Source of the DNA: a virus
IMG/VR virus record: IMGVR_UViG_3300042197_002762
Location: 1-64,000 of that record
DNA length: 64,000 nucleotides
Reading direction: 5' to 3' (one strand)
Part shown: piece after piece, positions 17,802 to 32,540 of the stretch
Layout of the letters: every line of letters starts with the position of its first letter
Position numbering within the stretch: the first letter of the stretch is position 1
Program-made: the position numbers and the translations under genes
Notes under the pieces: model-generated
The model's database searches: none
The model's input: the letters and a program-made list of their open reading frames with translations, nothing else
What the model was told of the DNA's origin: nothing

Positions 17802-20045
17802 TTATACTCCAGCGAGCATGAAGTCGCGGGTCGTAATGTAATCCAAGCAAGCCTCACGATGCTGCTTGTGATTGTCACGATAGGTCTGAAGGTTGTAGGC
17901 ATCAATCGCTTGCAAGACGCGCATGGCGTGAGCAAGTTTGGTTGCTTTGACTTCCATAGCGTCGAGCTTGGCACTACGTTTGGAACGGACGGCAGTAGTC
18001 TTGATGCCAATGTGACCGCAGATGGAATCAATGCAAGACTTGATCGTGGAGTCATTGGTTTGAGCTTGAAGGCTCAAGACTTCTTCCAGCACACGATGCG
18101 TGTTCGGCGCATTGGTCGCGTTGACCATCTTACGGAGTTCGCCGCGCAAGCATTGGTTCCGTGCGACAAAGTGCGTATGGATTTCGTCAGCATATAGAAC
18201 CTCGCCGCAATTAGATTGAGCTTCAATCTCCTTCAACGCATTGGTGAAGAAAGTTTTGAAGTCCATCACCTTACTGGCTTGAGCTTTCTTTAGAGTAGGG
18301 CCATTCTTGATACCGATGATGGTAGGAACAACGATATCCTTGGTCTTGGTCAAGTCAGCAAGCGTCTTGATCTTGGAGCAGCAAGACATAAGAGCAGTAG
18401 GAGACACTTCGCAACCATTGATCTTGCCCATGAACCGCTCAATCTCAACGTAGCAGTATTTCTTGGGGTCGAGATTCTTGAAGTCAACATCTTCCTCCTG
18501 CCAGTAGTCACTCTTGACCTTGTGATAGGACGAGAGATTTTTGGCATTGGGGTCAATCGAAAACACTTTGCTGGTGTGTTTGCTACGATTCGCCATGAGC
18601 GTGTTGCCATTGGCTTTACGAGTTGCGCGAGGCAGGAGAACCTTGGGCAACGTAGCCATGTCAACAATGTCAGCGTCAATCAGTCCGAGATTGTCCATCT
18701 GACGTTTGCGGTCAGCAGCATTGAGAGGCGTGAACACAATCACCTTGCCATCTTTTTGCAGGAACGGAAAGATGTGGTTGATGACTTGGTTCTGAATCTT
18801 CTTTGTGTTCTCAACGATGGTAATGTCATTGTCGAGCGTCACAAGATGAGTCAGTTCTTCGACCTTGCCACCTTTGACTATGTATGCACCACCGATGTAA
18901 CCTTTGCGCGGAGTATAGAGTCTGAATCCCTTGCTATTGGCAAAGTTGATCGTGAAGTCTTTAATGGTCTTGCCGTTATAATCGTAACCATTCTTACCGC
19001 GCATAGCGTTGCACACAACGTAGTAGGGACTATTGAAGTTGTGCATCTCACCAAGCATACGCTTGAACGACCACAGACTTTGTGCGCCCTTGAGTTGCTT
19101 GCTGATGTCAGCAACGAGGAAGTCACGAATGGCAAGGATACGCTTTTTGAGATTCGCAATCGTGCGATCCGTGTATTGCAAACCTTCACGCGAGGCAGCG
19201 ATGTCGCAGTCACCAATGGCAACGTCGAGTTCGATGTCGCAGTTAGTGAGCAAGCGTTCGATCACCGCTTCGTCGGCATTGTTCTCGTCGAGCTTGAGAG
19301 CATCCGAGCTAATGCGGTAAGCGATGTTACCCATGATGGCAAGGGCTTGACGACCATACGAGTTGCGGTCTGCTTTGAGCAAACGCCAATCGCTACCGCT
19401 ATAAAGAGGATTGCGAGTCTCGTAGGTGAAGTCAGCAGCACCACGGACAACAGGCTTGACCTTGAAGTGCTGGAACAAGTTGCGAGCAGTATTGACGAAA
19501 GTTTCGCAGTCGGCAGGTTTTACTGGAATCACAATTTCAACTCCGTTTGCATCCTTGGTAGGAGCAGACGCGAGTTTAGCGATTTGACCGATCTGCGAGG
19601 GATCAATGTAAGCGTTGTAAGTAGTCTTGATGCCGTTGAGATAGCTATTGATGACAAAGTTGTCACCATAGGCAAAAGCGGACTTACTACCAAGACCTAA
19701 CTGCCCGATGAGGGAGTTACTCTTACGCTTCGTTGATTCACCATAAAAGGCGTAAATCTCTTGAATGTCTTGTTCGGAAAGGCCAATGCCGTAGTCACGA
19801 ATCTTGAGTTCAAGAGAGAGACGAGAAGGAAGCGTGACCTCAATCGGACGATTGTGACCAGCTTCGGTGTGTGCGTCCACAGCGTTGCAGGAATACTCGC
19901 GCAAGACTGCAAGAATCTTGTCGGAATACAACTGGTTGCGGAGGACGTTGAAGATGTGAGCAAGACCTTCCTGCTTGATGCCGAAAGACACCGCGCCTTG
20001 AATACCTTGCGTGACAACATTAGCTTTGGGTTGAGTAACGATCAT
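17802..20045 (-). CDS. rIIA: rIIA-like protein (N-terminal GHKL/Hsp90-type ATPase)
   Basis: LYSDK..AVLREYSCNAVDAH, IRDYGIGL, STKRKSN..IGQLGLGSKS; start moved to ATG 20045 downstream of TTGCCA-N17-TATTCT; adjacent to rIIB. Confidence 0.85.
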   Translation of the reverse strand: MIVTQPKANVVTQGIQGAVSFGIKQEGLAHIFNVLRNQLYSDKILAVLREYSCNAVDAHTEAGHNRPIEVTLPSRLSLELKIRDYGIGLSEQDIQEIYAFYGESTKRKSNSLIGQLGLGSKSAFAYGDNFVINSYLNGIKTTYNAYIDPSQIGQIAKLASAPTKDANGVEIVIPVKPADCETFVNTARNLFQHFKVKPVVRGAADFTYETRNPLYSGSDWRLLKADRNSYGRQALAIMGNIAYRISSDALKLDENNADEAVIERLLTNCDIELDVAIGDCDIAASREGLQYTDRTIANLKKRILAIRDFLVADISKQLKGAQSLWSFKRMLGEMHNFNSPYYVVCNAMRGKNGYDYNGKTIKDFTINFANSKGFRLYTPRKGYIGGAYIVKGGKVEELTHLVTLDNDITIVENTKKIQNQVINHIFPFLQKDGKVIVFTPLNAADRKRQMDNLGLIDADIVDMATLPKVLLPRATRKANGNTLMANRSKHTSKVFSIDPNAKNLSSYHKVKSDYWQEEDVDFKNLDPKKYCYVEIERFMGKINGCEVSPTALMSCCSKIKTLADLTKTKDIVVPTIIGIKNGPTLKKAQASKVMDFKTFFTNALKEIEAQSNCGEVLYADEIHTHFVARNQCLRGELRKMVNATNAPNTHRVLEEVLSLQAQTNDSTIKSCIDSICGHIGIKTTAVRSKRSAKLDAMEVKATKLAHAMRVLQAIDAYNLQTYRDNHKQHREACLDYITTRDFMLAGV

Positions 20046-20116
20046 ATTAGTAGTAGGTTGAGTAATCAGAATAGCAGCATTTGTGTCGCATGGCAAGAGT
20101 TTTTTTGCAAAAAAAT

Positions 20117-20193
20117 GTAAGTGCCTTAAACTCAACGACTTACACGGCGCGGCGGGGCGCGGCGCTGTAAGTGCCTGGAATTGAACAGGTTAC
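20117..20193. repeat. 77-bp element, copy 2
   Basis: GTAAGTGCCT-N7-AACGACTTAC, GC core, GTAAGTGCCT-N7-AACAGGTTAC. Confidence 0.95.
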
Positions 20194-20211
20194 AACAAAC
20201 ACTATTGGAAC

Positions 20212-20251
20212 AAAAAGTTGGGGGTGAGGCCCACCACAAGCCCCACCCCCA
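20212..20251 (-). terminator. intrinsic terminator after rIIB
   Basis: TGGGGGTG...CACCCCCA stem followed by TTTTT on the - strand. Confidence 0.7.
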
Positions 20252-20268
20252 TGTCGCACCACCGACGA

Positions 20269-21117
20269 CTACCGCTTCCGCATGAAGCGACCTTTCGCAT
20301 CCCTCACATTGTAGTAAGGAGTTTCTTCCGCATCGTAGTTGAATGAGGGGGAATAATCCTCATCATCGGAAGTGAACTCCGTGTTGAGCGGTTTCCGATA
20401 AACCTGCTCAAAGTCCTTGACAACCTCGTAGCGAGCAGTCCGCAACTTCTGGCAGTCACAATCTTTCGGAACCGAAACAACATCCGAAGGATTGATCTTG
20501 ACGATCACCAAGCGCGAGTTGCCACCACCGAAGGTTTTAGCATACTCATAGCTACCAGCATGGAAACCATACGAGCAACCAACATCGGCGTCGTCGCAGA
20601 CAGCGTTGCGCGGCATTTCCAAAACCTCGCCAACACCATTGAAGAACTTGCCACTATGATGATCCATGTAATCCTCGCGGACACTCTTGTAGGCCAAGAA
20701 GTCGCCATCTTCACAGATCGGAAGATGCTTGTGTTCAAGGAACTTGTAAAGCTCCGAAACAGCACGACGAGAAGGATTCGCCATGAGTTTCTCAAGGAAC
20801 TTGGCAAGCGGAGCGAACGGCAAACCATCATCCATGAAGTCGAAGATACGATCCACGACATAGTTGTGCAAGGGTTCACCTTGGTAGTAGATCACGCCAT
20901 CGGCAATCTCGATACCGCCGACATTATCGGCATTGAACTTGCGGGTGATAGACTCTGAAACGTCGAACAGGGAGTCGAGCGTGTCAATGTCTCCAGTAGC
21001 GAGGCAAGTAAGAGCCTCGGTGAAAGACGGATGATTACAAGTCATCGTCTTGGGAGTGCCATCAATTACTGCGGTGATGGACTCGTCGGTTTTGATTAGT
21101 GCGTTTAGTGCTTTCAT
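20269..21117 (-). CDS. rIIB: rIIB-like protein
   Basis: LYKFLEH..LPI.EDGDFLAYK.V, MPRN.V.DD...CS.GFH.GS..YA, VKINP.DVVSVP.D...KLR. Confidence 0.88.
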   Translation of the reverse strand: MKALNALIKTDESITAVIDGTPKTMTCNHPSFTEALTCLATGDIDTLDSLFDVSESITRKFNADNVGGIEIADGVIYYQGEPLHNYVVDRIFDFMDDGLPFAPLAKFLEKLMANPSRRAVSELYKFLEHKHLPICEDGDFLAYKSVREDYMDHHSGKFFNGVGEVLEMPRNAVCDDADVGCSYGFHAGSYEYAKTFGGGNSRLVIVKINPSDVVSVPKDCDCQKLRTARYEVVKDFEQVYRKPLNTEFTSDDEDYSPSFNYDAEETPYYNVRDAKGRFMRKR

Positions 21118-21150
21118 CGTTTATTATATTATGCGTTTTTGGTCTGATTG

Positions 21151-21396
21151 TCAAACTGATTTCTTATCCATTTGGAAAGAAAAATGGCGAACACCAACCA
21201 GCGCGAGAATATCGTGGTTGACCTTGGAAGTCTCGCGCAATACTTTCATGTATTTGGTGAAAATTTGTTTTTTGTTAAGTCCAGCGTCCACCATCAAATC
21301 CCAGAGTTGCTTGTGCATGGCCGTGCCGTAGTGAGCAACGGCGAAAGCCAAGTCCTCATAGCGGCGAACAGAGTAGGTGTCTTTGAGAATCTTCAT
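21151..21396 (-). CDS. hypothetical protein
   Basis: 81 aa; coupled to the upstream ORF. Confidence 0.65.
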   Translation of the reverse strand: MKILKDTYSVRRYEDLAFAVAHYGTAMHKQLWDLMVDAGLNKKQIFTKYMKVLRETSKVNHDILALVGVRHFSFQMDKKSV

Positions 21397-21578
21397 TGTA
21401 GGTCTGTGATTTCGATAGCATTGACGATATACTTCTTGACATTCCCGACAATATCGGGAAACTCAATCAAAAGCGTTTGCTTGTTGTCAAGGTAAGTAAT
21501 CATAGGAACCGAATAGCCTTTTTCGCTCTGGTCGAGCTTTTCAGCAATGCGGTAAATGAGGTCGGTGCTATTTTTCAT
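21393..21578 (-). CDS. hypothetical protein (leaderless)
   Basis: TTGACA-N17-TACCTT-N6-ATG. Confidence 0.7.
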   Translation of the reverse strand: MKNSTDLIYRIAEKLDQSEKGYSVPMITYLDNKQTLLIEFPDIVGNVKKYIVNAIEITDLQ

Positions 21579-21621
21579 CCTCTAAAGGTATCGCATTTTG
21601 CGATTGGTGTCAAGTGTTTTT

Positions 21622-21698
21622 GTAAGTGCCTGGGATTCAAATACTTACGCCGCGCCGCCCCGCGCGCAATTGTAAGTCATTCATTACCAAATAGTTAT
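21622..21698. repeat. 77-bp element, copy 3 (abuts the tRNA-Lys 3' end)
   Basis: GTAAGTGCCT-N7-AAATACTTAC, core, GTAAGTCATT-N7-AAATAGTTAT. Confidence 0.9.
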
Positions 21699-21769
21699 GG
21701 AACGGGTGAGGCTCGAACTCACAACCAACGCCTTAAAAGGGCGCTGCTCTACCATTGAGCTACCATTCC
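21698..21769 (-). tRNA. tRNA-Lys(UUU)
   Basis: GCGCC-CTTTTAA-GGCGT anticodon arm, TTCGAGC T-loop. Confidence 0.92.
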
Positions 21770-21777
21770 TCAAATAG

Positions 21778-21850
21778 TGGGGCGAGTAGGATTCGAACCT
21801 ACAACCAATCGATTATGAGCCGACTGCTCTGACCATTGAGCTATCACCCC
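21778..21850 (-). tRNA. tRNA with CAU anticodon (Ile2-like or elongator Met)
   Basis: GTCGG-CTCATAA-TCGAT anticodon arm; lacks the three consecutive G-C pairs of initiator tRNA. Confidence 0.9.
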
Positions 21851-21929
21851 AGAAATTTAATCAGTCCGTAAATAGCAAACGCCCAGACCAAAATAGTTAC
21901 AGGTAAAGCTACAAATAGAACAATAGATT

Positions 21930-22178
21930 TCATAATTCAAAATATGATTGTTGATATTCAGTTTGTTCTACATCGTAGTCTGGAACCCAGATGTTCTCAT
22001 CGTTATGAGAACGACAAGCCAGTAGCAAATCTGTATGTTCCGTGTAGTCGTGATCGTAATACGGCTGCTCGGAATCTTCGTAATCAACGATTTCCCAAGT
22101 CTTGCCATCGTATTTTACATAGTCACCAATGACGAGCATTTCGCCATCGTAGTCAGCGGGGCAGATGTTTTTACTCAT
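21930..22178 (-). CDS. hypothetical acidic protein
   Basis: 82 aa; LVIGDYVKYDGKTWEIV (SH3-like). Confidence 0.7.
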   Translation of the reverse strand: MSKNICPADYDGEMLVIGDYVKYDGKTWEIVDYEDSEQPYYDHDYTEHTDLLLACRSHNDENIWVPDYDVEQTEYQQSYFEL

Positions 22179-22501
22179 AGTTTGAATATTGATTCGGGAT
22201 TAGGATAAACTTTTTTGCGTCTAATGTAAAGCCCCCAAAATTTTAGAGCGCGATCTTCGATTTGACAAAAGAGCTTGCCATGATCTAACGTCCCTCCGTA
22301 GAAGTGGCAAACCTCATGGACAACGTAGTAGATGACGAATTTTTCTCCGTGTTTGAACGCCCACTCTGGAATCGAAAACCACCCCTTCGTGGTATAGGCG
22401 CGACCCCGCTTGTTGGGTGTAATTTTGGCCTTGGGTCTAATGGGGAGTCCGAGGAATCTTGCGGTGAGATTTGCGATGGCTTGGATTTCATTTAGTTTCA
22501 T
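22175..22501 (-). CDS. SprT/zincin-like HExxH metalloprotein
   Basis: YYVVHEVCH...HGKLF. Confidence 0.75.
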   Translation of the reverse strand: MKLNEIQAIANLTARFLGLPIRPKAKITPNKRGRAYTTKGWFSIPEWAFKHGEKFVIYYVVHEVCHFYGGTLDHGKLFCQIEDRALKFWGLYIRRKKVYPNPESIFKL

Positions 22502-22560
22502 GGTGTAGCCTTACAGTATGGGATTTTGCGTGTGCGGTCAAGATATTTTTTCATTAAAAT

Positions 22561-22637
22561 GTAAGTGCCTGGAAACCAACGAGTTATGCCGCGCGGCGGG
22601 GCGCGGCGGCGTAAGTGCCTGGGAATGAACGACTTAC
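22561..22637. repeat. 77-bp element, copy 4
   Basis: GTAAGTGCCT-N7-AACGAGTTAT, core, GTAAGTGCCT-N7-AACGACTTAC. Confidence 0.95.
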
Positions 22638-22659
22638 ATAAAAAAGAATTTTTGCAAAG

Positions 22660-22688
22660 AAAAAACTTGACAGGTTGCCCTGTCAAGT
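22660..22688 (-). terminator. intrinsic terminator after the DUF932 gene
   Basis: CTTGACAGG-GCAA-CCTGTCAAG followed by T6 on the - strand. Confidence 0.85.
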
Positions 22689-22706
22689 CTTTCTGAGTTT
22701 GTTCGC

Positions 22707-23486
22707 TTAGGCGAGGACTGCTTCCGCATCCTCAACCCTCGCCAGCGCAACGCCAGCGAGAGGGTCGAGAAGTCCGTGCAGAGAGTCGCTCCGCTTGGGC
22801 AGTGCCAGCACGTTGCCGCGCATGACGTTGGTGAACGAGTTGTGCAAGCCCCACAGGTTGCGTTGCTCTGACCACTCGGCGTGTTCAGGGGTGTGCCACT
22901 GGTCGAGAACGTCCGCCAGTGCCGTCTTGCTGACCGCGCCAACGCGATACGCTTTGGCGATGAGGTCATGCGCCTCAAGGTCGTTGATCGAGCGAGCCTG
23001 ATAAGCCTCGATGCGCTTGGCGTTGTTGCCCCAAGTGTTCAGCAGTTTGCCGAACGCACCGGACAGGAGCATGGGCAGGTCGCGCATGATGAACTTGGTG
23101 TGGCGACGAGCGATCTTGATCTCGTTGTGGAAGGCGAGATTGTCGCAGACGAACGGAGCCGAACCAGCGTTGATGCCAGCAGGGAACGATTTGTCGTGCG
23201 AGTTACGCAGACCGATCACAGTGCCGATGTTCTCCTCTTGCGAGAAGTTGGGGATTCCCGCGACTTGGAACAAGCCGAAGTAGCGGAGACCATTGCGAGC
23301 AAGGGCGTGAGCCTCTTGCGTGATGCTGAGACCAGCGTTGATCACAACCTCGCGCAGACGCTCGACGAGAGCGAAGTGCGGGATGGGCATCCACGTTTCC
23401 GTGGGCGCAGGAGTTGCGATTTGCTGAACTTCAGTGGATTCCACGGCGTGACCGCCGCAGTGCAGTGTTAGGTTTAGGTTTCTCAT
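22707..23486 (-). CDS. DUF932-family protein
   Basis: ETWMPIPH..LVE, GLRYFG, IGLRNSHDKS, FVCDNLAF, LWGLHNSFT. Confidence 0.8.
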   Translation of the reverse strand: MRNLNLTLHCGGHAVESTEVQQIATPAPTETWMPIPHFALVERLREVVINAGLSITQEAHALARNGLRYFGLFQVAGIPNFSQEENIGTVIGLRNSHDKSFPAGINAGSAPFVCDNLAFHNEIKIARRHTKFIMRDLPMLLSGAFGKLLNTWGNNAKRIEAYQARSINDLEAHDLIAKAYRVGAVSKTALADVLDQWHTPEHAEWSEQRNLWGLHNSFTNVMRGNVLALPKRSDSLHGLLDPLAGVALARVEDAEAVLA

Positions 23487-23573
23487 ACTTCATAAGAATA
23501 CGTTGTTTTGCGTGACAGTGCAAGCGGTTTTTTTGAATTTGATTGAAAATATTTTTATGCCTTTCGGCAAAAC

Positions 23574-23589
23574 TTGGCACGGTTCTTGA
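23574..23589 (+). promoter_or_regulatory. sigma54-like -24/-12 box upstream of element copy 5
   Basis: TTGGCACG-GTTC-TTGA; the GG is 26 bp before the element start. Confidence 0.55.
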
Positions 23590-23601
23590 ATGTGAAAAGT
23601 C

Positions 23602-23678
23602 GTAAGGCGTTGATTTTCAACGACTTACGCGGCGCGGCGGGGCGCGCCCTCGTAACCCCATGATTACGAGGGCTTTAC
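23602..23678. repeat. 77-bp element, copy 5
   Basis: GTAAGGCGTT-N7-AACGACTTAC, core, GTAACCCCAT-N7-AGGGCTTTAC. Confidence 0.95.
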
Positions 23679-23680
23679 GC

Positions 23681-23851
23681 CTATTTGAGGAATTTTGCGA
23701 CTTGGATTCGGTTGGCCTTCTTCAGTAGGTCAGTGCGACCCAAGAAACCAGCTTTCTTCCGGCGCGACAAGACAGAGACAACACCAACTTCCTTGCGGAA
23801 GCGAACAGTCTCGCCCTTGTAGTTGTAGATAGCACCTTCGATGAGTTTCAT
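23681..23851 (-). CDS. small basic hypothetical protein (56 aa)
   Basis: MKLIEGAIYNYKGETVRF...; start reassigned; GGAGG-like AGGAGG upstream. Confidence 0.65.
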   Translation of the reverse strand: MKLIEGAIYNYKGETVRFRKEVGVVSVLSRRKKAGFLGRTDLLKKANRIQVAKFLK

Positions 23852-23867
23852 TATATTTTCCTCCTTT

Positions 23868-24092
23868 CTATTCTTCGTCATCCCCAAACATGGAGTCCCA
23901 CTCTTGGGGAGTGATACCCGTTTTGATGAACTCACGTTCACCAGCGGACAGCATGGGGAAAGCGTCTTGGATGAGCATCCCCGTTTGCCACAGGGTTGCA
24001 CGTTTCCCATACTCCTTGGGGGGGAGAGGGATTTCCATCTGGTTGACTTTGCCAGTGAAGGGAGAACGACGAGTGATAGTGATTTTGTTCAT
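23868..24092 (-). CDS. hypothetical phage protein (leaderless)
   Basis: LIQDAFPMLSAGEREFIKTGITPQEWD; TTGCAA-N17-TACATT-N6-ATG. Confidence 0.8.
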   Translation of the reverse strand: MNKITITRRSPFTGKVNQMEIPLPPKEYGKRATLWQTGMLIQDAFPMLSAGEREFIKTGITPQEWDSMFGDDEE

Positions 24093-24130
24093 ATTGCTAA
24101 TGTATGGGATTTTGAGAAGGATTGCAAGGA

Positions 24131-24856
24131 TTATTTTTCAAAAACATACGACCAGTAGCGCGAATCCTGCTTGTCTTGAATCGCGTCCCAATAGAGACAC
24201 CGAGCGATGTAGCAAGGAACATCGTAGGCGCGGCACATACTAATCCAATGCGCTTCGATGTTATCGTAATGTTTTTCGTCTTTAGTTTGGTCGAGTCCGT
24301 AGGCTTGGAACATATGAGTGTCCATGCAGACAACCTCGCACTTGTCGGGATGCATCATTTCCAGAGAGAAGGAAACTTTTGCTTTGCCAAGACCAAGCAC
24401 TTCACCAACAAGCTCGTCACGATGGCCGCGCCAATCGGCGGGAGCGTGAGAGTATTTCGGAATATCTTTCCAGAACTTTTGCTGGAACTGCCACACAAAC
24501 TTTGTGCGATTGTTGTGCAAGCCAACGCCGCTATGCTTGAGCTTGTTGAGAAGAACTTGCTGGTCATGCCACCAATCGAGAGTCTTGATGGCGTTGTAAC
24601 CATTGACGTTGGACTTCCAACTGGTATGGACTGACATAAAAGCAAACAGCCAACGCAACATGGAGTCTTGCGTTCCCTTGGGCGCGATGGAATTCCAGTA
24701 GTTGGTGTATGACACAATGCGCGAGTGGTCGAGAGTGTCAAAGAATTTCTCAACGCGAACGTATTGCGGATTGCGCGTAGGCTTGAGTTCAAGCTCTGGC
24801 TGCACAAGAGCATCAGAGGAGCAACGCATAGGGAGAGGCAGTTGTGTGGTGATCAT
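24131..24856 (-). CDS. HhH-GPD superfamily N-glycosylase/DNA lyase (Ogg-like)
   Basis: RDELVGEVLGLGKAKVSF helix-hairpin-helix followed by CMDTHM (catalytic Asp position). Confidence 0.75.
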   Translation of the reverse strand: MITTQLPLPMRCSSDALVQPELELKPTRNPQYVRVEKFFDTLDHSRIVSYTNYWNSIAPKGTQDSMLRWLFAFMSVHTSWKSNVNGYNAIKTLDWWHDQQVLLNKLKHSGVGLHNNRTKFVWQFQQKFWKDIPKYSHAPADWRGHRDELVGEVLGLGKAKVSFSLEMMHPDKCEVVCMDTHMFQAYGLDQTKDEKHYDNIEAHWISMCRAYDVPCYIARCLYWDAIQDKQDSRYWSYVFEK

Positions 24857-24908
24857 GTTCCAAGGATAGCCCTATTTGAAAATTTTGTCAACTGGTTTTT
24901 TATAATTT

Positions 24909-24985
24909 GTAAGTGCCTGGAAATGAACGACTTACACGGCGCGGCGGGGCGCGGCGCTGTAAGTGCTTGATAATGAGCACCTTGC
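24909..24985. repeat. 77-bp element, copy 6 (right arm overlaps the tRNA-Cys 3' end)
   Basis: GTAAGTGCCT-N7-AACGACTTAC, core, GTAAGTGCTT-N7-AGCACCTTGC. Confidence 0.93.
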
Positions 24986-25047
24986 TGGATTCGAACCAGC
25001 GTATAAGAGTTTTGCAGACTCTGGCCTTACCACTTGGCGAAAGGTGC
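24976..25047 (-). tRNA. tRNA-Cys(GCA)
   Basis: GCACCTT acceptor stem, AGAGT-CTGCAAA-ACTCT anticodon arm, TTCGAAT T-loop. Confidence 0.92.
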
Positions 25048-25818
25048 GAAAGTGTTCGGCTGCTCATACTTCCCTCCGTCAACAACCCTTTACGGCCTCG
25101 GGTGGGGCGAATGTGTTGCCACACTCGCAAGCTAACGCGCACCGAACGCGGGTCATGGCGACCATCCTCCTTTGCGGTAATCACTCCGCTTCTTTGGCCC
25201 AAGGATAGGCATCGTGCGTTGATTAGACGCTAGTATGTGTAGATGGCCCTAGACTATAACGGCTTCGGCTTACGTTGCACAACTTTCTTTCTAGACTATG
25301 TTGAGCAAACCATCAAATTATAAAAATGGTGATAGGGAGGCCAGAACTCCCTACCTATGACTCCGTGCCTTCTGGCGGCACCGACATCAAATTGCCTTTC
25401 GGCAACTAGCCCACAAGTTGAACGGAGATGTATCCGCCAGAGCTTGGGAGAATTTCTGAGCTGGAAGTTAATTCTTCTATTTTTGTCTTACGCGTATCCC
25501 ACCCTTCGGGGATGGGTCAGCTCAAATTGATTTCAGCCTCGGAGGGTTTTGTGTAGGACGACAGACCCTTACTTCTGTCCTTCTTTTATTCCGATACTTT
25601 ATTCGGGCTTGTTTTGCAAATTGTAAAAGAACTGCCCAGAGTTGTGATCGATCACAGCTTTATGACTCTTACGAGAGCAATGGGGTCTGGGCGACTCCCT
25701 ATGTTTTTATCTGCCTCGGCGGATGTTTGATTTTCGCTTTCGCGCCACCGCAAAGATCCGGTTAACTTTGCATCTTTTATTTCCGATATTGATTGTCGGG
25801 CAGATTTATTTTTGTGGC
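25048..25818 (-). ncRNA. candidate large structured ncRNA or array of ncRNAs (family unassigned)
   Basis: ~770 nt with no credible ORF; many stems, GNRA loops on the - strand (GAAA, GTAA), complementary loop pairs and a duplicated pseudoknot motif. Confidence 0.7.
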
Positions 25819-26082
25819 TTACGCCACAGATTTTCCAAAGAGCGATACGACTTCCCTATCAACGATCTCGTCGAAGCGGAACCTACGAACACCTTTGCCG
25901 AAGCAGTAGGCGGTGATTCCATTAGCGAACCCATCGAAGGGACGAGAAACGTAGTAGGTATGAACCTCATTGTTTCCGTGATCGGTGTAAGGCCGATATT
26001 TCAGACGATACACAGGATTGGTGAACTGGCCCAGCTTGGAGTCAGCGATTGCGAGTTTGACTTTATTTAGTAGTGCTTTCAT
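25819..26082 (-). CDS. stand-alone WYL-domain protein (87 aa, leaderless)
   Basis: YRLKY...V.RP...ITAYCFGKGVRRFRFDEI resembles the WYL AYC..R..R.FR.DRI motif; TTGACT-N17-TATTCT-N6-ATG. Confidence 0.65.
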   Translation of the reverse strand: MKALLNKVKLAIADSKLGQFTNPVYRLKYRPYTDHGNNEVHTYYVSRPFDGFANGITAYCFGKGVRRFRFDEIVDREVVSLFGKSVA

Positions 26083-26196
26083 TTTTATAGAATAAGTCTT
26101 TTTGCGTTCAAAGTCAACGGGTTTTTTCCAAAAAAAATTTTCACAAATATCCAAAATAGTATTGACAAAATAGCTAAATAGTGATAGGTTAAATAG

Positions 26197-26448
26197 ATGG
26201 ATAGAAATAGTTTACAATTAATAATTAATAATAATAAAGCATTACAAGACTTGGATAGATACTTCAAGGATAGTGGAGAATTGCATCTCATATGTGACAA
26301 AATAGGTAGGGAGCGTGACCCTGAGAACAGGGAACAGCTTATCAGTAAGATGAAGTGGAAGAATAAACAATTTGCAGAATCAATTGTCAAGTTGGCATCG
26401 ATGATAACTACACTAAAGCATAATCCACAAAGTCCTATCGCTCAATGA
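26197..26448 (+). CDS. hypothetical helical protein, the only + strand gene in the island
   Basis: 83 aa, AT-rich; TTGACA-N17-TAGGTT upstream; stop codon inside element copy 7. Confidence 0.65.
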   Translation: MDRNSLQLIINNNKALQDLDRYFKDSGELHLICDKIGRERDPENREQLISKMKWKNKQFAESIVKLASMITTLKHNPQSPIAQ

Positions 26449-26503
26449 CTTACGACGGGCGGCGGGGCGCGCCGCCGTAAGTGGTTGATGTCCAACGCTT
26501 TAC
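26427..26503. repeat. 77-bp element, copy 7 (left arm degenerate)
   Basis: ACAAAGTCCT-N7-AATGACTTAC, core, GTAAGTGGTT-N7-AACGCTTTAC. Confidence 0.88.
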
Positions 26504-26577
26504 GCCACTTCCGATTTGGGCAAAAAGTCAAACGCCCGTTTGAAGGGGCGTTGACTATGACACAACTATGACAAAGG

Positions 26578-27036
26578 TTAGTCCTCTGTCTCGCTCACCC
26601 AATCCGGCGCGCCGCCGTCGAGTTGCTGGTAGATGTGCGTTGGAGTTTTGGCGAACAGCATGAAACTTTCGCGTGGGAAAGATTCAAACTCTGCGCGTGC
26701 AGCTTGCGCGGCGTCACGGCGAAACTTTTCGCCATTCGGTTTCTTGTGAAAGCGCGGACGCGCCTTGTATTGTTCGCTCACCGGAGAGTCTTGCCAATTT
26801 GTCATAGTTTCGTATGTCATAGCGCGAAGCATATCCGCTTCCGTGGAGAGGAAGTAGGAGAAGTTATCGGAGAGTTCGTGTAAGTAGCTGCCGAGTTCAC
26901 CGATGCCAGTTGCGCCCCAGTTGAAGAAGCGGTTGAACGTGCGTTCAACTTGTTCGCGTGTTCCGTTGAGGCCGACAGCGATGCCGTTGCCGTATGCGCT
27001 GATGATGATGTTTGCTTGTTCCATTGTGTTTGTCAT
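26578..27036 (-). CDS. hypothetical protein
   Basis: 152 aa; followed by a terminator-like hairpin at ~26525-26555. Confidence 0.75.
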   Translation of the reverse strand: MTNTMEQANIIISAYGNGIAVGLNGTREQVERTFNRFFNWGATGIGELGSYLHELSDNFSYFLSTEADMLRAMTYETMTNWQDSPVSEQYKARPRFHKKPNGEKFRRDAAQAARAEFESFPRESFMLFAKTPTHIYQQLDGGAPDWVSETED

Positions 27037-27040
27037 AAAA

Positions 27041-27175
27041 TTAATTTCCGCGAGCGTCGATGTCCTGCCAGTATTTCAGTTCTTGCTCGTCGAGCCAAGC
27101 CTCAAATTCAGAGGCAAACTCGTCGCTTTGGATTTGCGTGGTGAAGTCGTCGTTGATGATGGAGTTCGCTTGCAT
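27041..27175 (-). CDS. small acidic protein (44 aa, leaderless)
   Basis: MQANSIINDDFTTQIQSDEFASEFEAWLDEQELKYWQDIDARGN; not in the ORF track; paralogue of 31568-31780. Confidence 0.75.
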   Translation of the reverse strand: MQANSIINDDFTTQIQSDEFASEFEAWLDEQELKYWQDIDARGN

Positions 27176-27278
27176 GAGAAAAGAATAGCACAGGGGCGCG
27201 AGAGTGCAACGGATTTTTTTGCATTTTTAGAAAGTATTTTTGTTGACGATTTCTCAAACGGGCGTTTGAATCCCAAAG

Positions 27279-27294
27279 TTGGCACGCTTTCTGC
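27279..27294 (+). promoter_or_regulatory. sigma54-like -24/-12 box upstream of element copy 8
   Basis: TTGGCACG-CTTT-CTGC, GG-N10-GC spacing; the GG is 26 bp before the element. Confidence 0.65.
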
Positions 27295-27306
27295 TCCTTG
27301 TTTTGC

Positions 27307-27383
27307 GTAAGTCGTTCATTTTCAAGCACTTACGCTGGCGCGGGGGGCGCGCCGCCGTAAGTCGTTGATTTACAACGCTTTAC
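27307..27383. repeat. 77-bp element, copy 8
   Basis: GTAAGTCGTT-N7-AAGCACTTAC, core, GTAAGTCGTT-N7-AACGCTTTAC. Confidence 0.95.
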
Positions 27384-27384
27384 G

Positions 27385-27540
27385 TTACCGCAATCTATCG
27401 CGCAAGTCGAGGCAACGCTCCCACGCTATGACAAACATTTTCGAGAGTGTCATAAAGCCGTGACGTTCCAATTTTTGCGCGAGGCTGAAGCAACCTTCCG
27501 ACAAGCGGAACAGATTTTTTCGTGCGATTAGGTTTGTCAT
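27385..27540 (-). CDS. hypothetical protein (51 aa)
   Basis: MTNLIARKNLFRLSEGCFSLAQKLERHGF...; start reassigned. Confidence 0.6.
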   Translation of the reverse strand: MTNLIARKNLFRLSEGCFSLAQKLERHGFMTLSKMFVIAWERCLDLRDRLR

Positions 27541-27617
27541 AGTTTTCCGTTCTGATGAATTGCAAAGGCACACGCAGCCACCACTACAAGCAGGCAGATG
27601 ATTTCCATAGGGGTTCA

Positions 27618-28301
27618 TTATACACCAACTTGCACCACGAATCCAGAAGTATCGCGGAGAGCTTTGCCCTTTGCTTTGAGTCCGACGATCACACCTTGCG
27701 GATCGAGAAAGCGTAAGTCGCTTTCGTCGCCGTTTATGACAGTCTTGCCGAGGTAGGTTTCGGGCAACTCATTAAAGACAACCGCCACGTTGCCACCAGC
27801 AGCAACAACGGCGTGGACGCGATGCTGATTGTCCTCCTTACGCGAGAAAGTAAGATGATAATTTTTCGGTAGTTCGCCATTCAAAAATTGCATCATGCGC
27901 TGAAGGTTCGGCGTGTAGTCGTAAAACTGAATTGACGGAAAACGCGCCATGTCGATGAGCATATGCCAAGGAAGGTCAGAAAGCACGTTCGGACGCACAG
28001 CAACGGGCATTTTATTTTTAACGCTCCATTTTTCTGCGTTGTGCAATTCCTTATTCATCTGTGCGAGAAACGTGTTGCGCTCGTCGATGAAAAAACGAGA
28101 CTTTGCAAGGCGAGCGTCTTGCACGTTTGAGAAAATGCCCATGCCCGAAGTGTCGAGACAAGCGGCCTCGCATCCTGCCGAGCGATGCGGACAGAATTGT
28201 TTTCCGCTTTTGCCAGCGGGAGAGAGTGACAGGCCGTAAGTGCGCCAGCCGAGTTTCTCGCCTTTTTTGATTTTGGTGTTGTTGGTGCTGAGTAGTTTCA
28301 T
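27618..28301 (-). CDS. Gp88-like conserved phage protein
   Basis: MKLLSTNNTKI, LSLSPA..SG..CP...GC.AACL, RPNVLSD, FYDYT, YHLTFS, NVAVVF, GDESDLRFLD, IVGLKAKG. Confidence 0.75.
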   Translation of the reverse strand: MKLLSTNNTKIKKGEKLGWRTYGLSLSPAGKSGKQFCPHRSAGCEAACLDTSGMGIFSNVQDARLAKSRFFIDERNTFLAQMNKELHNAEKWSVKNKMPVAVRPNVLSDLPWHMLIDMARFPSIQFYDYTPNLQRMMQFLNGELPKNYHLTFSRKEDNQHRVHAVVAAGGNVAVVFNELPETYLGKTVINGDESDLRFLDPQGVIVGLKAKGKALRDTSGFVVQVGV

Positions 28302-28326
28302 GGTGATGATTTTTGCAGATTTTAAG

Positions 28327-28566
28327 TTAGAGGGCAAGAGCTTTTTTCACCCTTGCGATGTCGCGCTTACTGTGCGTGTAGAGTTTCGCGTCGATGCTTT
28401 CCAGATTGGAGAGCAAACGATAGGCGGCGATTTTTTCGCGTGCGTTACGGCGCGCAAACTTTGAGACGATGCTGTTGCGGTCGCGCAAGCTGTTCGTGAT
28501 GTCCTTTTGAAGCGCAACACGCGCATGAATGAGGGCTTCGTAGAGTTCGCGTTTGGTGATGTTCAT
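28327..28566 (-). CDS. hypothetical basic protein
   Basis: 79 aa; TTGCAA-N17-GAAAAT-N6-ATG. Confidence 0.7.
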   Translation of the reverse strand: MNITKRELYEALIHARVALQKDITNSLRDRNSIVSKFARRNAREKIAAYRLLSNLESIDAKLYTHSKRDIARVKKALAL

Positions 28567-28604
28567 ATTTTTATTTTCTCCGATTTTGAGTTAGGTTGCA
28601 AGGA

Positions 28605-28760
28605 TTATTTTTCGAGAAGTGCCGCAAGCTGTTTGCGAAGCTTGCCCAAGTGATTGAGGAGGACAGTCGTTTGATCGTCGAGCATAGGATCGAGAAGATC
28701 CTCCGCCACTTGTTCGATTTTTGCGGTGAGGGTTTGGATTTGGATTTCTTTCTCTGTCAT
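28605..28760 (-). CDS. small helical protein (51 aa, leaderless)
   Basis: MTEKEIQIQTLTAKIEQVAEDLLDPMLDDQTTVLLNHLGKLRKQLAALLEK; not in the ORF track. Confidence 0.75.
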   Translation of the reverse strand: MTEKEIQIQTLTAKIEQVAEDLLDPMLDDQTTVLLNHLGKLRKQLAALLEK

Positions 28761-28873
28761 GCTTACAATGTATCACAGCCGCGTAAAAATGCAACGATTT
28801 TTTTTCAATTCCGTAAAAGTATTTTTGTTGACACTTTTTCAAACAGGCGTTTGAACCACTATGACATTCATTG

Positions 28874-28889
28874 TTGGCACGGTTCCTGC
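28874..28889 (+). promoter_or_regulatory. sigma54-like -24/-12 box upstream of element copy 9
   Basis: TTGGCACG-GTTC-CTGC; the GG is 26 bp before the element. Confidence 0.65.
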
Positions 28890-28901
28890 GCACTATGTTG
28901 C

Positions 28902-28978
28902 GTAAGTCGCTGATATCCAAGCACTTACGCCGCGCGGCGGGGCGCGCCGCCGTAAGTCGTTGATTATTAGTGCTTTAC
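28902..28978. repeat. 77-bp element, copy 9
   Basis: GTAAGTCGCT-N7-AAGCACTTAC, core, GTAAGTCGTT-N7-AGTGCTTTAC. Confidence 0.95.
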
Positions 28979-29110
28979 GATGTAGTCGCTGATCTGGCCG
29001 TTAGCCGCCATGCGCTCAAGCCATGTGGAAGTATTGTAGTGCCACAGGCTCATGGCGAGCAGTGAAACAGGCGTTTGAATTCCGAGCAGTTGTTTTATCC
29101 AGTTTGTCAT
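28967..29110 (-). CDS. hypothetical protein (47 aa)
   Basis: MTNWIKQLLGIQTPVSLLAMSLWHYNTSTWLERMAANGQISDYIVKH; stop codon inside element copy 9. Confidence 0.55.
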   Translation of the reverse strand: MTNWIKQLLGIQTPVSLLAMSLWHYNTSTWLERMAANGQISDYIVKH

Positions 29111-29114
29111 AGTG

Positions 29115-29300
29115 TTATGACACCGATTCTTCGTCGGTGCCGAGAATTTTTTCCATGCGCTCTTTCAGTAGCGTATAGACAAGGTGCGCGTCATGCACAG
29201 CGTCAACGCAGTCTTTCCGCATACCTTCCATGAGGAAGTCTTTTGCAAAGAAGCGAACGCCATTTGATTCAAGGGCTTTTTGTATGTTGGGCGTGATCAT
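29115..29300 (-). CDS. hypothetical protein
   Basis: 61 aa; KDCVDAVHDAHLVYTLLKER. Confidence 0.7.
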   Translation of the reverse strand: MITPNIQKALESNGVRFFAKDFLMEGMRKDCVDAVHDAHLVYTLLKERMEKILGTDEESVS

Positions 29301-29497
29301 GATTCAGAATCATCGAGGAACATTCCGTCGAAAGCAAGAGGTTTTTCCAGATGGTCAAACATGGTGTTGACATCTTTTTGCAGTTCCTTCTTTTCGTGCA
29401 AGTTGAGGCAAGCTGTCAAAAGCATTACCAGAATGAGGATGAAGGTTGAGAGAGACATTACATAGGCAATGCTGTCGAATGTGATGTATTTTTTCAT
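29297..29497 (-). CDS. small membrane protein
   Basis: MKKYITF... with one TM segment; start reassigned. Confidence 0.6.
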   Translation of the reverse strand: MKKYITFDSIAYVMSLSTFILILVMLLTACLNLHEKKELQKDVNTMFDHLEKPLAFDGMFLDDSES

Positions 29498-29501
29498 GTA
29501 A

Positions 29502-29591
29502 TTATTTTTTTCGGGAATCAGCCCAGAGGATGAGGAACGCGCAAGCGGAAGGGAAGATGCACAGGTAAAAGAGTGGAACCCAGATTGACAT
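29502..29591 (-). CDS. small membrane peptide (29 aa)
   Basis: MSIWVPLFYLCIFPSACAFLILWADSRKK; fills the gap between neighbours exactly. Confidence 0.5.
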   Translation of the reverse strand: MSIWVPLFYLCIFPSACAFLILWADSRKK

Positions 29592-29594
29592 AGT

Positions 29595-29810
29595 TTATTT
29601 ATATGATCCAACAGGGATGTTGGGCGTTGCAGAGTAGACCGCTTCCAGAAAACGACTTTCATCAAAGCGCGGATTCTGTTCGGTGAAGTATTTCGCAAAG
29701 TCCAAGGCGAGGACTTCGACAGCTTCGTATTCTCCGATGGGAGCGTGTTGTTTTTCAGCGAGACGCTTGCCCAAGATTTTTGCGATGGCCTCGAATTGTT
29801 TTTTTGTCAT
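29595..29810 (-). CDS. hypothetical phage protein (NPRFD family, leaderless)
   Basis: MTKKQFEAIA...FTEQNPRFDESRFLEA; TTGACC-N17-CACAAT-N6-ATG. Confidence 0.8.
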   Translation of the reverse strand: MTKKQFEAIAKILGKRLAEKQHAPIGEYEAVEVLALDFAKYFTEQNPRFDESRFLEAVYSATPNIPVGSYK

Positions 29811-29857
29811 GGTGTTATTGTGGTTTGTTTTGTGGTTAGGGTCAAGAGATTTTTTCA

Positions 29858-30037
29858 CTACCAGCGGTTGCGGTAGCGGTCGAGCCTTTCGGCGCGGTTC
29901 ATGCGCTCGATCTCACGCTCGTAAGCGTCAGGGTTGATCTTGTAGGCAGGATCTTCACGATCAATGCCGAGTGGGAGGTCGAGGGTTGCTTCGCGTTCTT
30001 CGTCGCGCCAGCTTCTGGTGTATCCGTTTCTGTTCAT
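29858..30037 (-). CDS. small charged protein (59 aa, leaderless)
   Basis: MNRNGYTRSWRDEEREATLDLPLGIDREDPAYKINPDAYEREIERMNRAERLDRYRNRW; not in the ORF track. Confidence 0.75.
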   Translation of the reverse strand: MNRNGYTRSWRDEEREATLDLPLGIDREDPAYKINPDAYEREIERMNRAERLDRYRNRW

Positions 30038-30163
30038 GTATACAGAATAGCACAGGGCCGCGAAAATGCAACGATTTTTTTTGCGATTGTTGAAAGTATT
30101 TTTGTTGACGTTTCGGCAAACGAGTGTTTGAAAAAAAGACTATGACAAAGAGTGTCATAATGC

Positions 30164-30240
30164 ACAAGTCACTGATATTCAAGCACTTACGCTCGCGCGC
30201 GGGGCGCGCCGTCGTAAGTCGTTGATATTCAACGCTTTAC
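30164..30240. repeat. 77-bp element, copy 10
   Basis: ACAAGTCACT-N7-AAGCACTTAC, core, GTAAGTCGTT-N7-AACGCTTTAC. Confidence 0.93.
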
Positions 30241-30392
30241 TCGTCAGACCAACCGCGAAAAAACTTCGCCTTGCGCGCGAATTTTTTCTTGACACGCATG
30301 GCGAACGAAGGCTTGCAAGTTGTCTTGCGAACACTTCGCTCTATCGCGCGCGCGAGTGGGCGCGTGTCGATTGTCATAATGATTTTGCTCAT
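30237..30392 (-). CDS. small basic protein (paralogue of 32360-32536)
   Basis: IDTRPLARAIERSV; stop codon in the right arm of element copy 10. Confidence 0.6.
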   Translation of the reverse strand: MSKIIMTIDTRPLARAIERSVRKTTCKPSFAMRVKKKFARKAKFFRGWSDE

Positions 30393-30393
30393 G

Positions 30394-30624
30394 TTAGTTG
30401 ACTCCGTAAGAAAACTTTTTGTCGCGCAGTTGCTGAACCTCACGCGCCAGAACGAGGTTCGTTCCACACAAGAGATTCAGTTTGTGCTCGTGCATGGTGA
30501 TGGTGTGCAAGGCTTGTGCCAGCAGTTCTTTCAACTGTGTCATATCAGCCTCCTGCGCCTGGATAGTTTTTTCATGCTTGATGAGAGTCTCCAGCGATTT
30601 TATGATGCCGTCTTGGTTTGTCAT
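30394..30624 (-). CDS. small coiled-coil protein
   Basis: MTNQDGIIKSLETLIKHEK...; start reassigned. Confidence 0.7.
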   Translation of the reverse strand: MTNQDGIIKSLETLIKHEKTIQAQEADMTQLKELLAQALHTITMHEHKLNLLCGTNLVLAREVQQLRDKKFSYGVN

Positions 30625-30628
30625 AGTG

Positions 30629-30790
30629 TTAGTGTTTAGGCTTGGGTTCGGGGCGAGCACACGGATCGTTGCGGTGACGCTCCTCGGCGTAGCCGAAAAG
30701 GATGTCGAACGCTTGTTCGGGTGTGAGGTTATCTTCGGGTTCGTCGAAGTTCCAGACTTCGGGCCAGCCAGTTGTGGTGTTTTCTGTCAT
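30629..30790 (-). CDS. small acidic protein (leaderless)
   Basis: TTGCCT-N17-TATACT-N6-ATG. Confidence 0.7.
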   Translation of the reverse strand: MTENTTTGWPEVWNFDEPEDNLTPEQAFDILFGYAEERHRNDPCARPEPKPKH

Positions 30791-30810
30791 ATTGAAAGTA
30801 TAGGAGATGC

Positions 30811-31014
30811 TTACTCCAAAGGCAAGCAAATTGTGGACTGGATCGCCAACCCGCACAGGTGCGAGTAGTCGTAACCTTTTTGGTCGAGAGTTTTTTTCAT
30901 CTGTTCGATGCGGCGCGTGGCCTTATTGATCGCCGTGCGAAGCGTGGCCGCTTCGATTTCGATGATGACCGGAAGCTCTCCGGTCTTGGTGAAGGTGATG
31001 ACGTATGGTTTCAT
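30811..31014 (-). CDS. hypothetical protein
   Basis: TTGACT-N16-TAAAAT-N7-ATG. Confidence 0.7.
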   Translation of the reverse strand: MKPYVITFTKTGELPVIIEIEAATLRTAINKATRRIEQMKKTLDQKGYDYSHLCGLAIQSTICLPLE

Positions 31015-31045
31015 GGTTAGAATTTTAGCAGGTTAGTGGTGAGAG

Positions 31046-31222
31046 TCAAGCGATTTTCTTGACCGCTACCTTCCAGTAGGGGAAGTAAAGCCCCAAGTAG
31101 CGAGCGGTGATTTGCACACCATCTTTGCACCAGATGGTGCGTTTGTTGTTTTGCGAGACGAAGGGGATGCCCTTCATGGCGTTGAGGACGATTTCCTTTT
31201 TGTGGGTTCCTTTTGTTATCAT
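31046..31222 (-). CDS. hypothetical protein (leaderless)
   Basis: TTGCGT-N16-TATAGT-N6-ATG. Confidence 0.7.
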   Translation of the reverse strand: MITKGTHKKEIVLNAMKGIPFVSQNNKRTIWCKDGVQITARYLGLYFPYWKVAVKKIA

Positions 31223-31335
31223 GCTTACACTATACCACAGATCGCGCAAAACGCAAGGGATTTTTTTGCGATTAGCGAAAGTATTTTTGTTGACGTTTTG
31301 TCAAACGGACGTTTGAATCACTATGACATTCATTG

Positions 31336-31351
31336 TTGGCACGGTTCATGA
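31336..31351 (+). promoter_or_regulatory. sigma54-like box upstream of element copy 11
   Basis: TTGGCACG-GTTC-ATGA; the GG is 26 bp before the element. Confidence 0.5.
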
Positions 31352-31363
31352 GCAGCATATTGC

Positions 31364-31440
31364 GTAAGTCGCTGATTATCAAGCACTTACGACGGGCGGC
31401 GGGGCGCGCCGTCGTAAGTCGTTGAATACCAAGGGTTTAT
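31364..31440. repeat. 77-bp element, copy 11
   Basis: GTAAGTCGCT-N7-AAGCACTTAC, core, GTAAGTCGTT-N7-AAGGGTTTAT. Confidence 0.95.
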
Positions 31441-31567
31441 GCAACATGGGATTTGGGCAAATTGAAACGCCCGTTTAGAACGGGCGTTTCGCTTCCTCAT
31501 CGTTTATTCCCGCGTCATGGAGACACGCATCGAAACGTTCGGAAAGTTATGACACAGCTATGACAAA

Positions 31568-31780
31568 CTAGTTGTCCCAGCCCTCCTGCTCGCCCCAATC
31601 CGCGAGGTCGTCGAGGCCCGACCCATCACCAGGCCATTGGCCCTCGCACCCATCGTAGGGTTGCGGTTCGGGTTCCTGCTCGACGGCAGGCTCTGCCGCG
31701 AACGTGCCGTGAGCCTCCTCATGCTCGCTGGCGTATTCGTCGGATTGCGGTTGCGTGTTGAAGTCGTCGGTGATGTTCAT
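31568..31780 (-). CDS. small very acidic protein (leaderless)
   Basis: MNITDDFNTQPQSDEYASEH...DDLADWGEQEGWDN; TTGCCA-N17-TATCCT-N6-ATG. Confidence 0.8.
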   Translation of the reverse strand: MNITDDFNTQPQSDEYASEHEEAHGTFAAEPAVEQEPEPQPYDGCEGQWPGDGSGLDDLADWGEQEGWDN

Positions 31781-31823
31781 AGTGTTAGGATATGATGAGT
31801 TGAGGTTAATGGCAAGAGATTTT

Positions 31824-32274: not shown

Positions 32275-32286
32275 ATGTGTGTTTGC

Positions 32287-32536: not shown

Positions 32537-32540
32537 AATG

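Follow-up and report, generated by a model that had tools for sequence, protein, structure and literature searches.

Since T4, phage tRNA clusters have been known to harbour small stable RNAs, to which, to our knowledge, no function has ever been assigned. In T4 they are species 1 and 2 (rnaC and rnaD), small structured RNAs of the tRNA cluster that are produced from a tRNA precursor transcript. Large ornate phage RNAs, GOLLD and ROOL, often adjoin tRNA genes too, each as a single RNA with co-conserved domains. Here we describe a locus of the IMG/VR virus record IMGVR_UViG_3300042197_002762, a complete genome of 178,478 bp with direct terminal repeats, the first 64 kb of which (positions 1 to 64,000, hereafter the window) contain the locus and supply the coordinates given below. 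On the − strand of the window, which carries all features of the locus, a promoter, an 87-aa open reading frame (ORF), a 771-nt ORF-free stretch (25048–25818), a tRNA-Cys gene and a GC-rich stem-loop follow one another. The ORF-free stretch is probably an array of about eight separate small structured-RNA cassettes of 65–125 nt, many of them pseudoknotted.

As in T4, the RNAs of this locus are small, structured and placed beside phage tRNA genes. The locus differs from rnaC and rnaD in having about eight cassettes instead of two, in their shuffling between strains, in a conserved spacer and in the small protein gene that heads the unit. Our covariance models R1 and R2, run with filters off over positions 69500–72500 of T4, found nothing on the RNA strand at rnaC/rnaD (best scores, 6–10 bits), and the T4 RNAs appear to be the closest known analogue by likeness without homology. 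The array shares with GOLLD and ROOL the phage context, the proximity to tRNA, many GNRA loops and pseudoknots; however, it has no Rfam match and is made of separable cassettes. The locus is best classed with the small stable RNAs of phage tRNA clusters rather than as a new giant RNA, and it is not in Rfam. It adds new covariation-backed RNA motifs, namely a stop-codon-linked pseudoknot family (M1/M3), a constrained RNA of ~120 nt with complementary loops (M5), M4 and M6, together with a conserved spacer, which behaves as a border between cassettes would. Like the early protein genes of phages, such RNAs can be organized as an array whose members shuffle. The motifs are candidates for Rfam and provide concrete objects for the study of RNA processing, protein binding and possible counter-defence in uncultivated freshwater phages.

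A mosaic of RNA cassettes

A preliminary description of the locus, made by eye from the sequence, had given about 770 nt without a credible ORF, and this held: no frame of the stretch has an ORF of more than 40 aa, the − strand frames contain 9–17 stop codons each, and gene callers left the equivalent gap (440–1,000 nt) empty in every relative. An alternative genetic code was considered and rejected, as each frame has stops of all three kinds and no recoding would open it. The comparison set comprised about 100 related loci of uncultivated phages from freshwater metagenomes. In blastn comparisons with these relatives the stretch resolved into a mosaic, which we split into eight blocks, M1–M8, and scored across 40 distinct arrays. 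Presence and absence of the blocks proved independent between close relatives. M1 and M3 occur in most relatives and M4, M6, M7 and M8 in subsets, whereas M2 is confined to this array apart from a diverged copy in two loci (L007/L043). M5 or M8 can each directly precede tRNA-Cys, M8 also occurs without the tRNA, and the relatives hold at least eight further block types that are absent from this array.

Among close relatives, the separately conserved cassettes have been shuffled, lost or gained. They each have their own closing helix, several with covariation, and in the collected homologues M1/M3, M4, M5 and M6 at least keep their helices through compensatory mutations. Because the cassettes come and go singly in close relatives, the array is not one large RNA. 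The preliminary description had proposed either a large non-coding RNA or an array of several non-coding RNAs or ribozymes; the array is supported, the single large RNA is not, and no ribozyme family was matched. G–U pairs in the covarying helices (for example, UCGUC/GGCGA and AACUGCC/GGUAGUU) fit the − strand only, so the RNAs are assigned to that strand, a point that folding energy does not decide.

Some relatives carry promoter-plus-small-ORF cassettes among the RNA cassettes (L078:743–790, L014:4880–5150), and there the shuffling within the slot seems to involve protein as well as RNA cassettes. One cassette of another relative (L095:1504–1645) holds two T-arm-like sequences, GGTTCGATTCC and GGTTCAAATCC, within a single closing helix, GAGCG/CGCTC, and may be a tRNA-like or double-tRNA-derived RNA.

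A pseudoknot family behind the stop codon

M1 (25710–25805) is a pseudoknot RNA with covariation in its closing helix, hairpin and pseudoknot, and scores 86.6 bits with model R1. It consists of the closing helix ATCTGCC/GGCAGAT, CCGA-loop-UCGG, AAAUAAAAG, a hairpin with the loop CGGAU, which pairs with a downstream AUCCG, and an inserted GNRA hairpin. M3 (25531–25610; 85 bits with R1), in which the loop AGGGU pairs with ACCCU, is a shorter second member of the family. The two are paralogues that have in common the closing helix (..GCC/GGC..), CCGA-loop-UCGG and an invariant AAAYAAAAG; in both, the loop of a further hairpin pairs with the strand just 5′ of an invariant CCGAGGC, and the GNRA hairpin is an addition of M1. 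For UCGG, a 5′ and a 3′ CCGA are both possible partners, and all three are invariant.

Among 20 distinct members of the family, 89.9% of cells pair, compared with 34–42% when the partners are slid; nine pairs changed on both sides, and the covariation score was 0.248 versus 0.089 in shuffles. The pseudoknot occurs as CGGAU/AUCCG, AGGGU/ACCCU, GCGU/ACGC, AGCAU/AUGCU, CGCG/CGCG, CGCAU/AUGCG and CGCAC/GUGCG, with covarying pairs that include GGG/CCC, GCG/CGC and GCA/UGC. The closing helix, whose M1 form was already picked out in the preliminary description and is borne out by compensatory changes, varies from ATCTGCC to AGCC, ACACGCC, CCGCC, GCGCC and CUCGCC, and the partner matches each time, including GCU/AGC.

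In the 178-kb genome R1 found only the copies M1 and M3, and relatives hold one or two. The first match begins 12–28 nt past the ORF stop codon in nearly all loci, including 38 further loci. Pattern scans of IMG/VR for M5 and for the M1/M3 core returned the same phage clade only; matches in L016, L020, L023 and L067, which fell in unrelated or coding DNA, were set aside as chance. In distant relatives a related hairpin, CCCGAU..AUCGGAA, stands behind the same ORF, and the spacer described below and then ordinary tRNA genes come next. Because ordinary tRNAs stand there after the ORF, hairpin and spacer, the slot of the array can be read as a tRNA-type transcription unit. The family resembles H-type pseudoknot aptamers (preQ1-I- or SAM-II-like) and pseudoknots that protect 3′ ends, such as exoribonuclease-resistant RNAs, in architecture only, with no Rfam homology: a loop pairs with a downstream strand, A-rich strands run alongside, and the seat is just past the stop codon.

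M5, the constant cassette

M5 (25331–25450), of ~120 nt and single-copy in the genome, is the most constant of these RNAs. Close relatives that offer sufficient sequence nearly always have it, at 89–95% identity; L076 lacks it, L077 has only a diverged form, and it is absent from the distant relatives L028, L031 and L032. In 31 distinct variants M5 is invariant over most of its 120 nt, including most unpaired positions, while the ORF in the same genomes differs by 9–19% at the nucleotide level; at 92–95% identity in relatives whose ORF reaches 81–91%, M5 is more conserved than the ORF. It comprises a GNRA hairpin, a hairpin with the loop GCCAGAA and a 9-bp 3′ hairpin with the loop UUCUGGC. The two 7-nt loops are exact complements; for the first of them, a 5′ CUCUGGCGG segment is a possible competitor. 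Variation sits in the GNRA-capped hairpin, with four covarying pairs, and at the base of the 3′ hairpin; seven pairs show double changes among the 31 variants.

Two folds of the central part compete. In fold (i), the hairpin GGUGCC-GCCAGAA-GGCAC presents its loop to the complementary loop of the 3′ hairpin; in fold (ii), the 5′ CUCUGGCGG segment forms a long helix with CCGCCAGAG. Fold (i) shows two independent double changes that are compensatory, at 81/91 (C–G to U–A, L098) and 82/90 (C–G to U–A, L107). Fold (ii) is broken once (17/91), is otherwise kept through G–U pairs and is 99.8% compatible. The preliminary description had listed CTGGCGG/CCGCCAG among its helices; this pairing is compatible with all 31 variants, yet the competing hairpin has compensatory changes of its own. 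Substitutions that satisfy both folds, few as they are, would fit a two-state RNA. A diverged M5-like element, cut by a contig end (L077:975–1084), keeps the order of blocks, and its loops GCCAAG/CUUGGC are again complementary, which is suggestive of the loop–loop contact. A twister-like reading of CCCAAGC in M5 was rejected, as the flanking stem is not conserved.

M4, M6 and the remaining cassettes

M4 (25458–25523) has the closing helix GAGCUG/CAGCUC around two hairpins and folds well below shuffled sequences (minimum free energy (MFE) z-score, −4.74). Its closing helix had also been noted in the preliminary description and is backed by compensatory changes, which are found in 6 of the 20 pairs of the cassette (four sequences). 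M6 (25242–25314) encloses a 9-bp helix and a small hairpin within GAUGG/CCAUC; four pairs are compensatory among seven sequences, and 91.8% of cells are paired as against 22–51% in slid registers. M2 (25633–25701; MFE z, −2.0) is a candidate H-type pseudoknot (GGGAG..CCCC, GCCCAGA/UCUGGGC) with two inserted hairpins. The second of these pairings, also one of the helices seen at the outset, gains from the diverged copy in L007/L043, where GCCCCGA/UCGGGGC appears, by eye, as a compensatory change of A–U to C–G. M8 (25048–25172; MFE z, −1.35) is a multi-hairpin RNA with GNRA loops that ends 8 nt before tRNA-Cys. Its hairpins GGUC/GACC and CGCG..CGCG covary by eye among seven variants; the pairing of its CGG loop with a 3′ CCG tail, first given as GTTCGG/CCGAAC, is kept with at least 4–5 pairs in a shifting register. 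For M7 (25173–25236; MFE z, −1.1), two hairpins with complementary loops, UAAUCA/UGAUUA, are predicted.

A U-rich spacer between cassettes

Many of the cassettes are bounded by a U-rich spacer, one full copy of which, GTTCTTTTACAATTTG (25617–25632), precedes M3. The motif has the core GTTCTTTTACA and the full form of about AATTTTTA GTTCTTTTACAATTTG, and shortened forms (AATTTG) precede M4 and M6 in the window. Seventy-five loci have one copy and 12 have 2–5, every one of them on the ORF strand; with ~1.3 copies expected per strand in the 464 kb searched, this is an excess of ~100-fold over chance. In L095, five successive cassettes each start with the spacer and end in ATTTTTA. The spacer is kept even in relatives with 56–65% ORF identity, where all other cassettes differ. 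The motif reads as a cassette boundary, and we infer for it a role in RNase E-type processing, as a joint in recombination, or in both capacities. A promoter was also considered for the motif and rejected: it contains a −10-like TACAAT, but the relatives have no conserved −35 upstream.

The gene that heads the unit

A sigma-70-type promoter, TTGACT-17-TATTCT (26117–26089; 9/12 in the consensus scan), precedes the ORF. Its −35 and −10 boxes are conserved while the sequence between them varies in 16 relatives, some with an ORF only ~60% identical, and by this pattern the promoter is real. Because the ATG stands only 6 nt past the −10 box (6–7 nt among relatives), the mRNA is predicted to be leaderless, in keeping with the leaderless promoter of the preliminary description. 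The ORF (25819–26082) has 47 homologous protein clusters at 56–93% identity with conservative substitutions, a pattern by which it is a real gene. In some relatives the small ORF has two paralogues in tandem, one of 80 aa followed by one of 87 aa, before the array begins (L068:3001–3596).

The gene had initially been called a stand-alone WYL-like ORF; the conserved gene stands, and the WYL label lacks a Pfam match. The AlphaFold2 model (mean predicted local distance difference test score, 74.8) consists of a helix (residues 2–21) followed by a small β-barrel of five strands, and the family is not established. In Foldseek, the top 12 PDB matches of the model were all WYL-domain proteins (CapW, PafBC, DriD, BrxR) at insignificant E values of 0.14–0.7, and Hfq/Sm chains ranked next. 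With VIA-align, Z was at most 3.5 throughout and insignificant: WYL proteins (Z 2.0–2.8; root-mean-square deviation 3.6–4.7 Å over 54–63 residues) tied with Hfq/Sm and other small barrels. The Hfq/Sm chains reached a Z of only 2.0–2.6, their order of helix and five strands fits the model, and no family outside the small-barrel group stood out. The likeness to WYL and Sm/Hfq proteins thus lies in the predicted helix and five-strand barrel; WYL regulators, in contrast, carry helix–turn–helix or other domains, whereas the ORF protein stands alone at 87 aa.

Sequence searches were negative. A Pfam hmmscan of the ORF gave no family at E ≤ 1, and the WYL hidden Markov model PF13280, which did match 9 of 14 control genomes, found nothing at E ≤ 10 in a six-frame search of the entire phage genome. 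A remote homologue (P0050) reaches only 13.5 bits with PF13280, below the curated cut-off of 21.8 bits; remote homologues found in a profile search have just the barrel in common. A search of the ESM Atlas gave nothing usable, a PDB sequence profile gave nothing, and a PADLOC match of the ORF to DrmC (E = 0.009, 14.5 bits) was taken as chance. WYL membership is a reasonable lead from the predicted fold and is not demonstrated.

The likeliest of the rival explanations makes the RNAs partners of this Sm/WYL-like protein, which would bind the pseudoknot, for autoregulation or within a ribonucleoprotein (RNP), or would use the spacer as an Sm-site-like element. The M1/M3-type pseudoknot placed so regularly behind the stop codon, the related hairpin and spacer that persist where all other cassettes are different, and a predicted barrel of the kind found in Sm, Hfq and WYL nucleic-acid binders all point this way. 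Adjacency alone is weak evidence, however, the fold matches are insignificant, and in the remote homologues L071–L074 genes follow directly with no RNA array or gap; we consider such a partnership possible but unlikely. An extended version, a phage RNP system in which the protein binds the spacer or M1/M3, M5 is a bistable regulator and the cassettes are an early trans-acting toolkit of decoys or regulators alongside leaderless mRNAs, seems to us a doubtful proposition.

Other readings of the ORF-free stretch

The cassettes might instead be decoys against host defences, mimicking antitoxin RNAs or the substrates of RNases or nucleases. High turnover and shuffling in an early-expressed region are the pattern of counter-defence genes, and type III toxins are reported to be neutralized by pseudoknotted RNAs, of which phages can carry mimics. 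Known type III antitoxin arrays (ToxI-like) are tandem, near-identical repeats of ~34–46 nt with an endoribonuclease toxin gene. Here, by contrast, the cassettes all differ, no toxin gene is adjacent, Tandem Repeats Finder found no tandem near-identical repeats in 24900–26200, and nothing resembles known antitoxin repeats, which leaves the decoy explanation improbable.

It is less probable still that one or more cassettes process or regulate the array as self-cleaving ribozymes or as aptamers that bind a ligand. M5 is nearly invariant at unpaired positions, like catalytic or ligand-binding cores, and the compact M1/M3 pseudoknots with their A-rich strands have an architecture like that of small riboswitch aptamers. 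Nevertheless, a search of the window with Rfam 15 matched only tRNAs at the gathering score; at E ≤ 10 on 24800–26300 it gave only tRNA and chance matches, and eight relatives with additional cassette types of their own again gave only tRNAs at E ≤ 1. These searches, proposed in the preliminary description for GOLLD, ROOL and ribozymes, included the known riboswitch families and the hammerhead, twister, pistol, hatchet and hepatitis delta virus-like ribozymes, the negative applying to the families as modelled in Rfam and not to minimal variants outside it. Moreover, no cassette precedes a gene to control, and no hammerhead core was seen by eye in the cassettes of the window; a CUGAUGA in one cassette of the relatives has neither a hammerhead-type stem II nor GAAA, and Rfam found no hammerhead there.

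One large ornate RNA of ~770 nt, GOLLD- or ROOL-like and folding as a unit, is very unlikely. In favour of this reading, the stretch lacks ORFs, abounds in GNRA loops and adjoins a tRNA, a position often taken by GOLLD and ROOL, and its MFE is lower than that of shuffles (z, −3.3). Against this stand the negative Rfam searches and the gain and loss of single cassettes, each closed by its own helix. The helix GGCCATCT/GGATGGTC, proposed in the preliminary description, would moreover join M6 and M8, and is unsupported because these occur without each other. Finally, it is barely credible that the stretch is non-functional spacer, made of decayed genes or scars of recombination in which hairpins arose by chance. 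The region is indeed very plastic and nothing supports M7, but M5 is better conserved than the protein gene beside it, the spacer motif keeps to one strand, and compensatory changes in five cassettes largely refute such an origin.

A model for the cassette array

An array of separate cassettes can be pictured as follows. The leaderless promoter at 26117 would transcribe the ORF, the cassettes and tRNA-Cys as one early precursor. Host RNase P would cut at the tRNA, and an RNase E-type enzyme might cut within the AU-rich spacers, so that the cassettes would be set free as small stable RNAs in the manner of T4 rnaC and rnaD. The M1/M3 pseudoknot after the stop codon could be a protected 3′ end of the ORF mRNA or the protein's own binding site. 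M5 would act in trans and may switch between kissing loops and capture of one loop by the 5′ segment. The slot itself would be a tRNA-type precursor into which other RNAs were inserted. A search of the phage genome for antisense targets yielded only AT-rich low-complexity 12–14-mers (52 found, ~16 expected at uniform base composition).

Several observations weigh against the array as drawn here. The relatives are close, so that many covariation counts go back to few events and to the split between the paralogues M1 and M3. Over the whole stretch the folding energy is only moderately better than that of shuffles and not strand-specific (− strand z, −3.3; + strand z, −3.7), and it is poor for M3, M6, M7 and M8. 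Support for M2 comes from one diverged copy, and M7 has one near-identical variant elsewhere and no informative ones. The 3′ hairpin of M5 with its U-run resembles a terminator, perhaps a leaky one, and could split the unit. Transcription, co-transcription, processing sites, RNA stability and cassette function are all deduced from the DNA.

Genomic surroundings of the array

The array sits in the early, tRNA-bearing region of a 178-kb freshwater phage. The record has a GC content of 33.5% overall, with an island of 48–52% at ~17–33 kb that contains rIIA and rIIB homologues, several tRNA genes and the RNA array; the edges of this island (17000–33000) are sharp, at ~17 kb and ~33 kb, in a genome of ~33% GC. 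Searches of 50,697 phage records for cultured relatives, by blastn with the region and tblastn with the ORF, returned no match. The terminase is only 22–25% identical to those of Bacillus and Clostridium phages, and because of this low identity the host cannot be inferred. In relatives, tRNA genes for Asp, Lys and Trp lie immediately upstream.

Downstream of the array, the tRNA-Cys gene expected from the preliminary description (24975–25047; anticodon GCA) was called by ARAGORN and matched the Rfam tRNA family RF00005 as a cloverleaf at 62.3 bits. The GC-rich stem-loop that follows (24913–24974), there named element copy 6, folds strongly (MFE −24.6 kcal/mol; z, −4.28) and is a possible end of the transcription unit; the promoter scan placed the next promoter beyond it at 24891–24863. 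This stem-loop has no U-tract and recurs 3′ of tRNA-Cys in relatives, where its GC core is variable and its ACTTAC/GTAAGT arms are conserved. In the distant relative L028, a tRNA-model match of 117 nt (4391–4507; 40.9 bits, not called by ARAGORN) has an insertion of ~45 nt past the anticodon region and could be a phage tRNA interrupted by an intron or in some other way. The gene downstream in the window (24131–24856, − strand; 241 aa) matches the Ogg-HhH fold of 8-oxoguanine glycosylases below threshold (E = 0.0024), and in relatives it stays beside the array, often adjoining a SprT-like gene.

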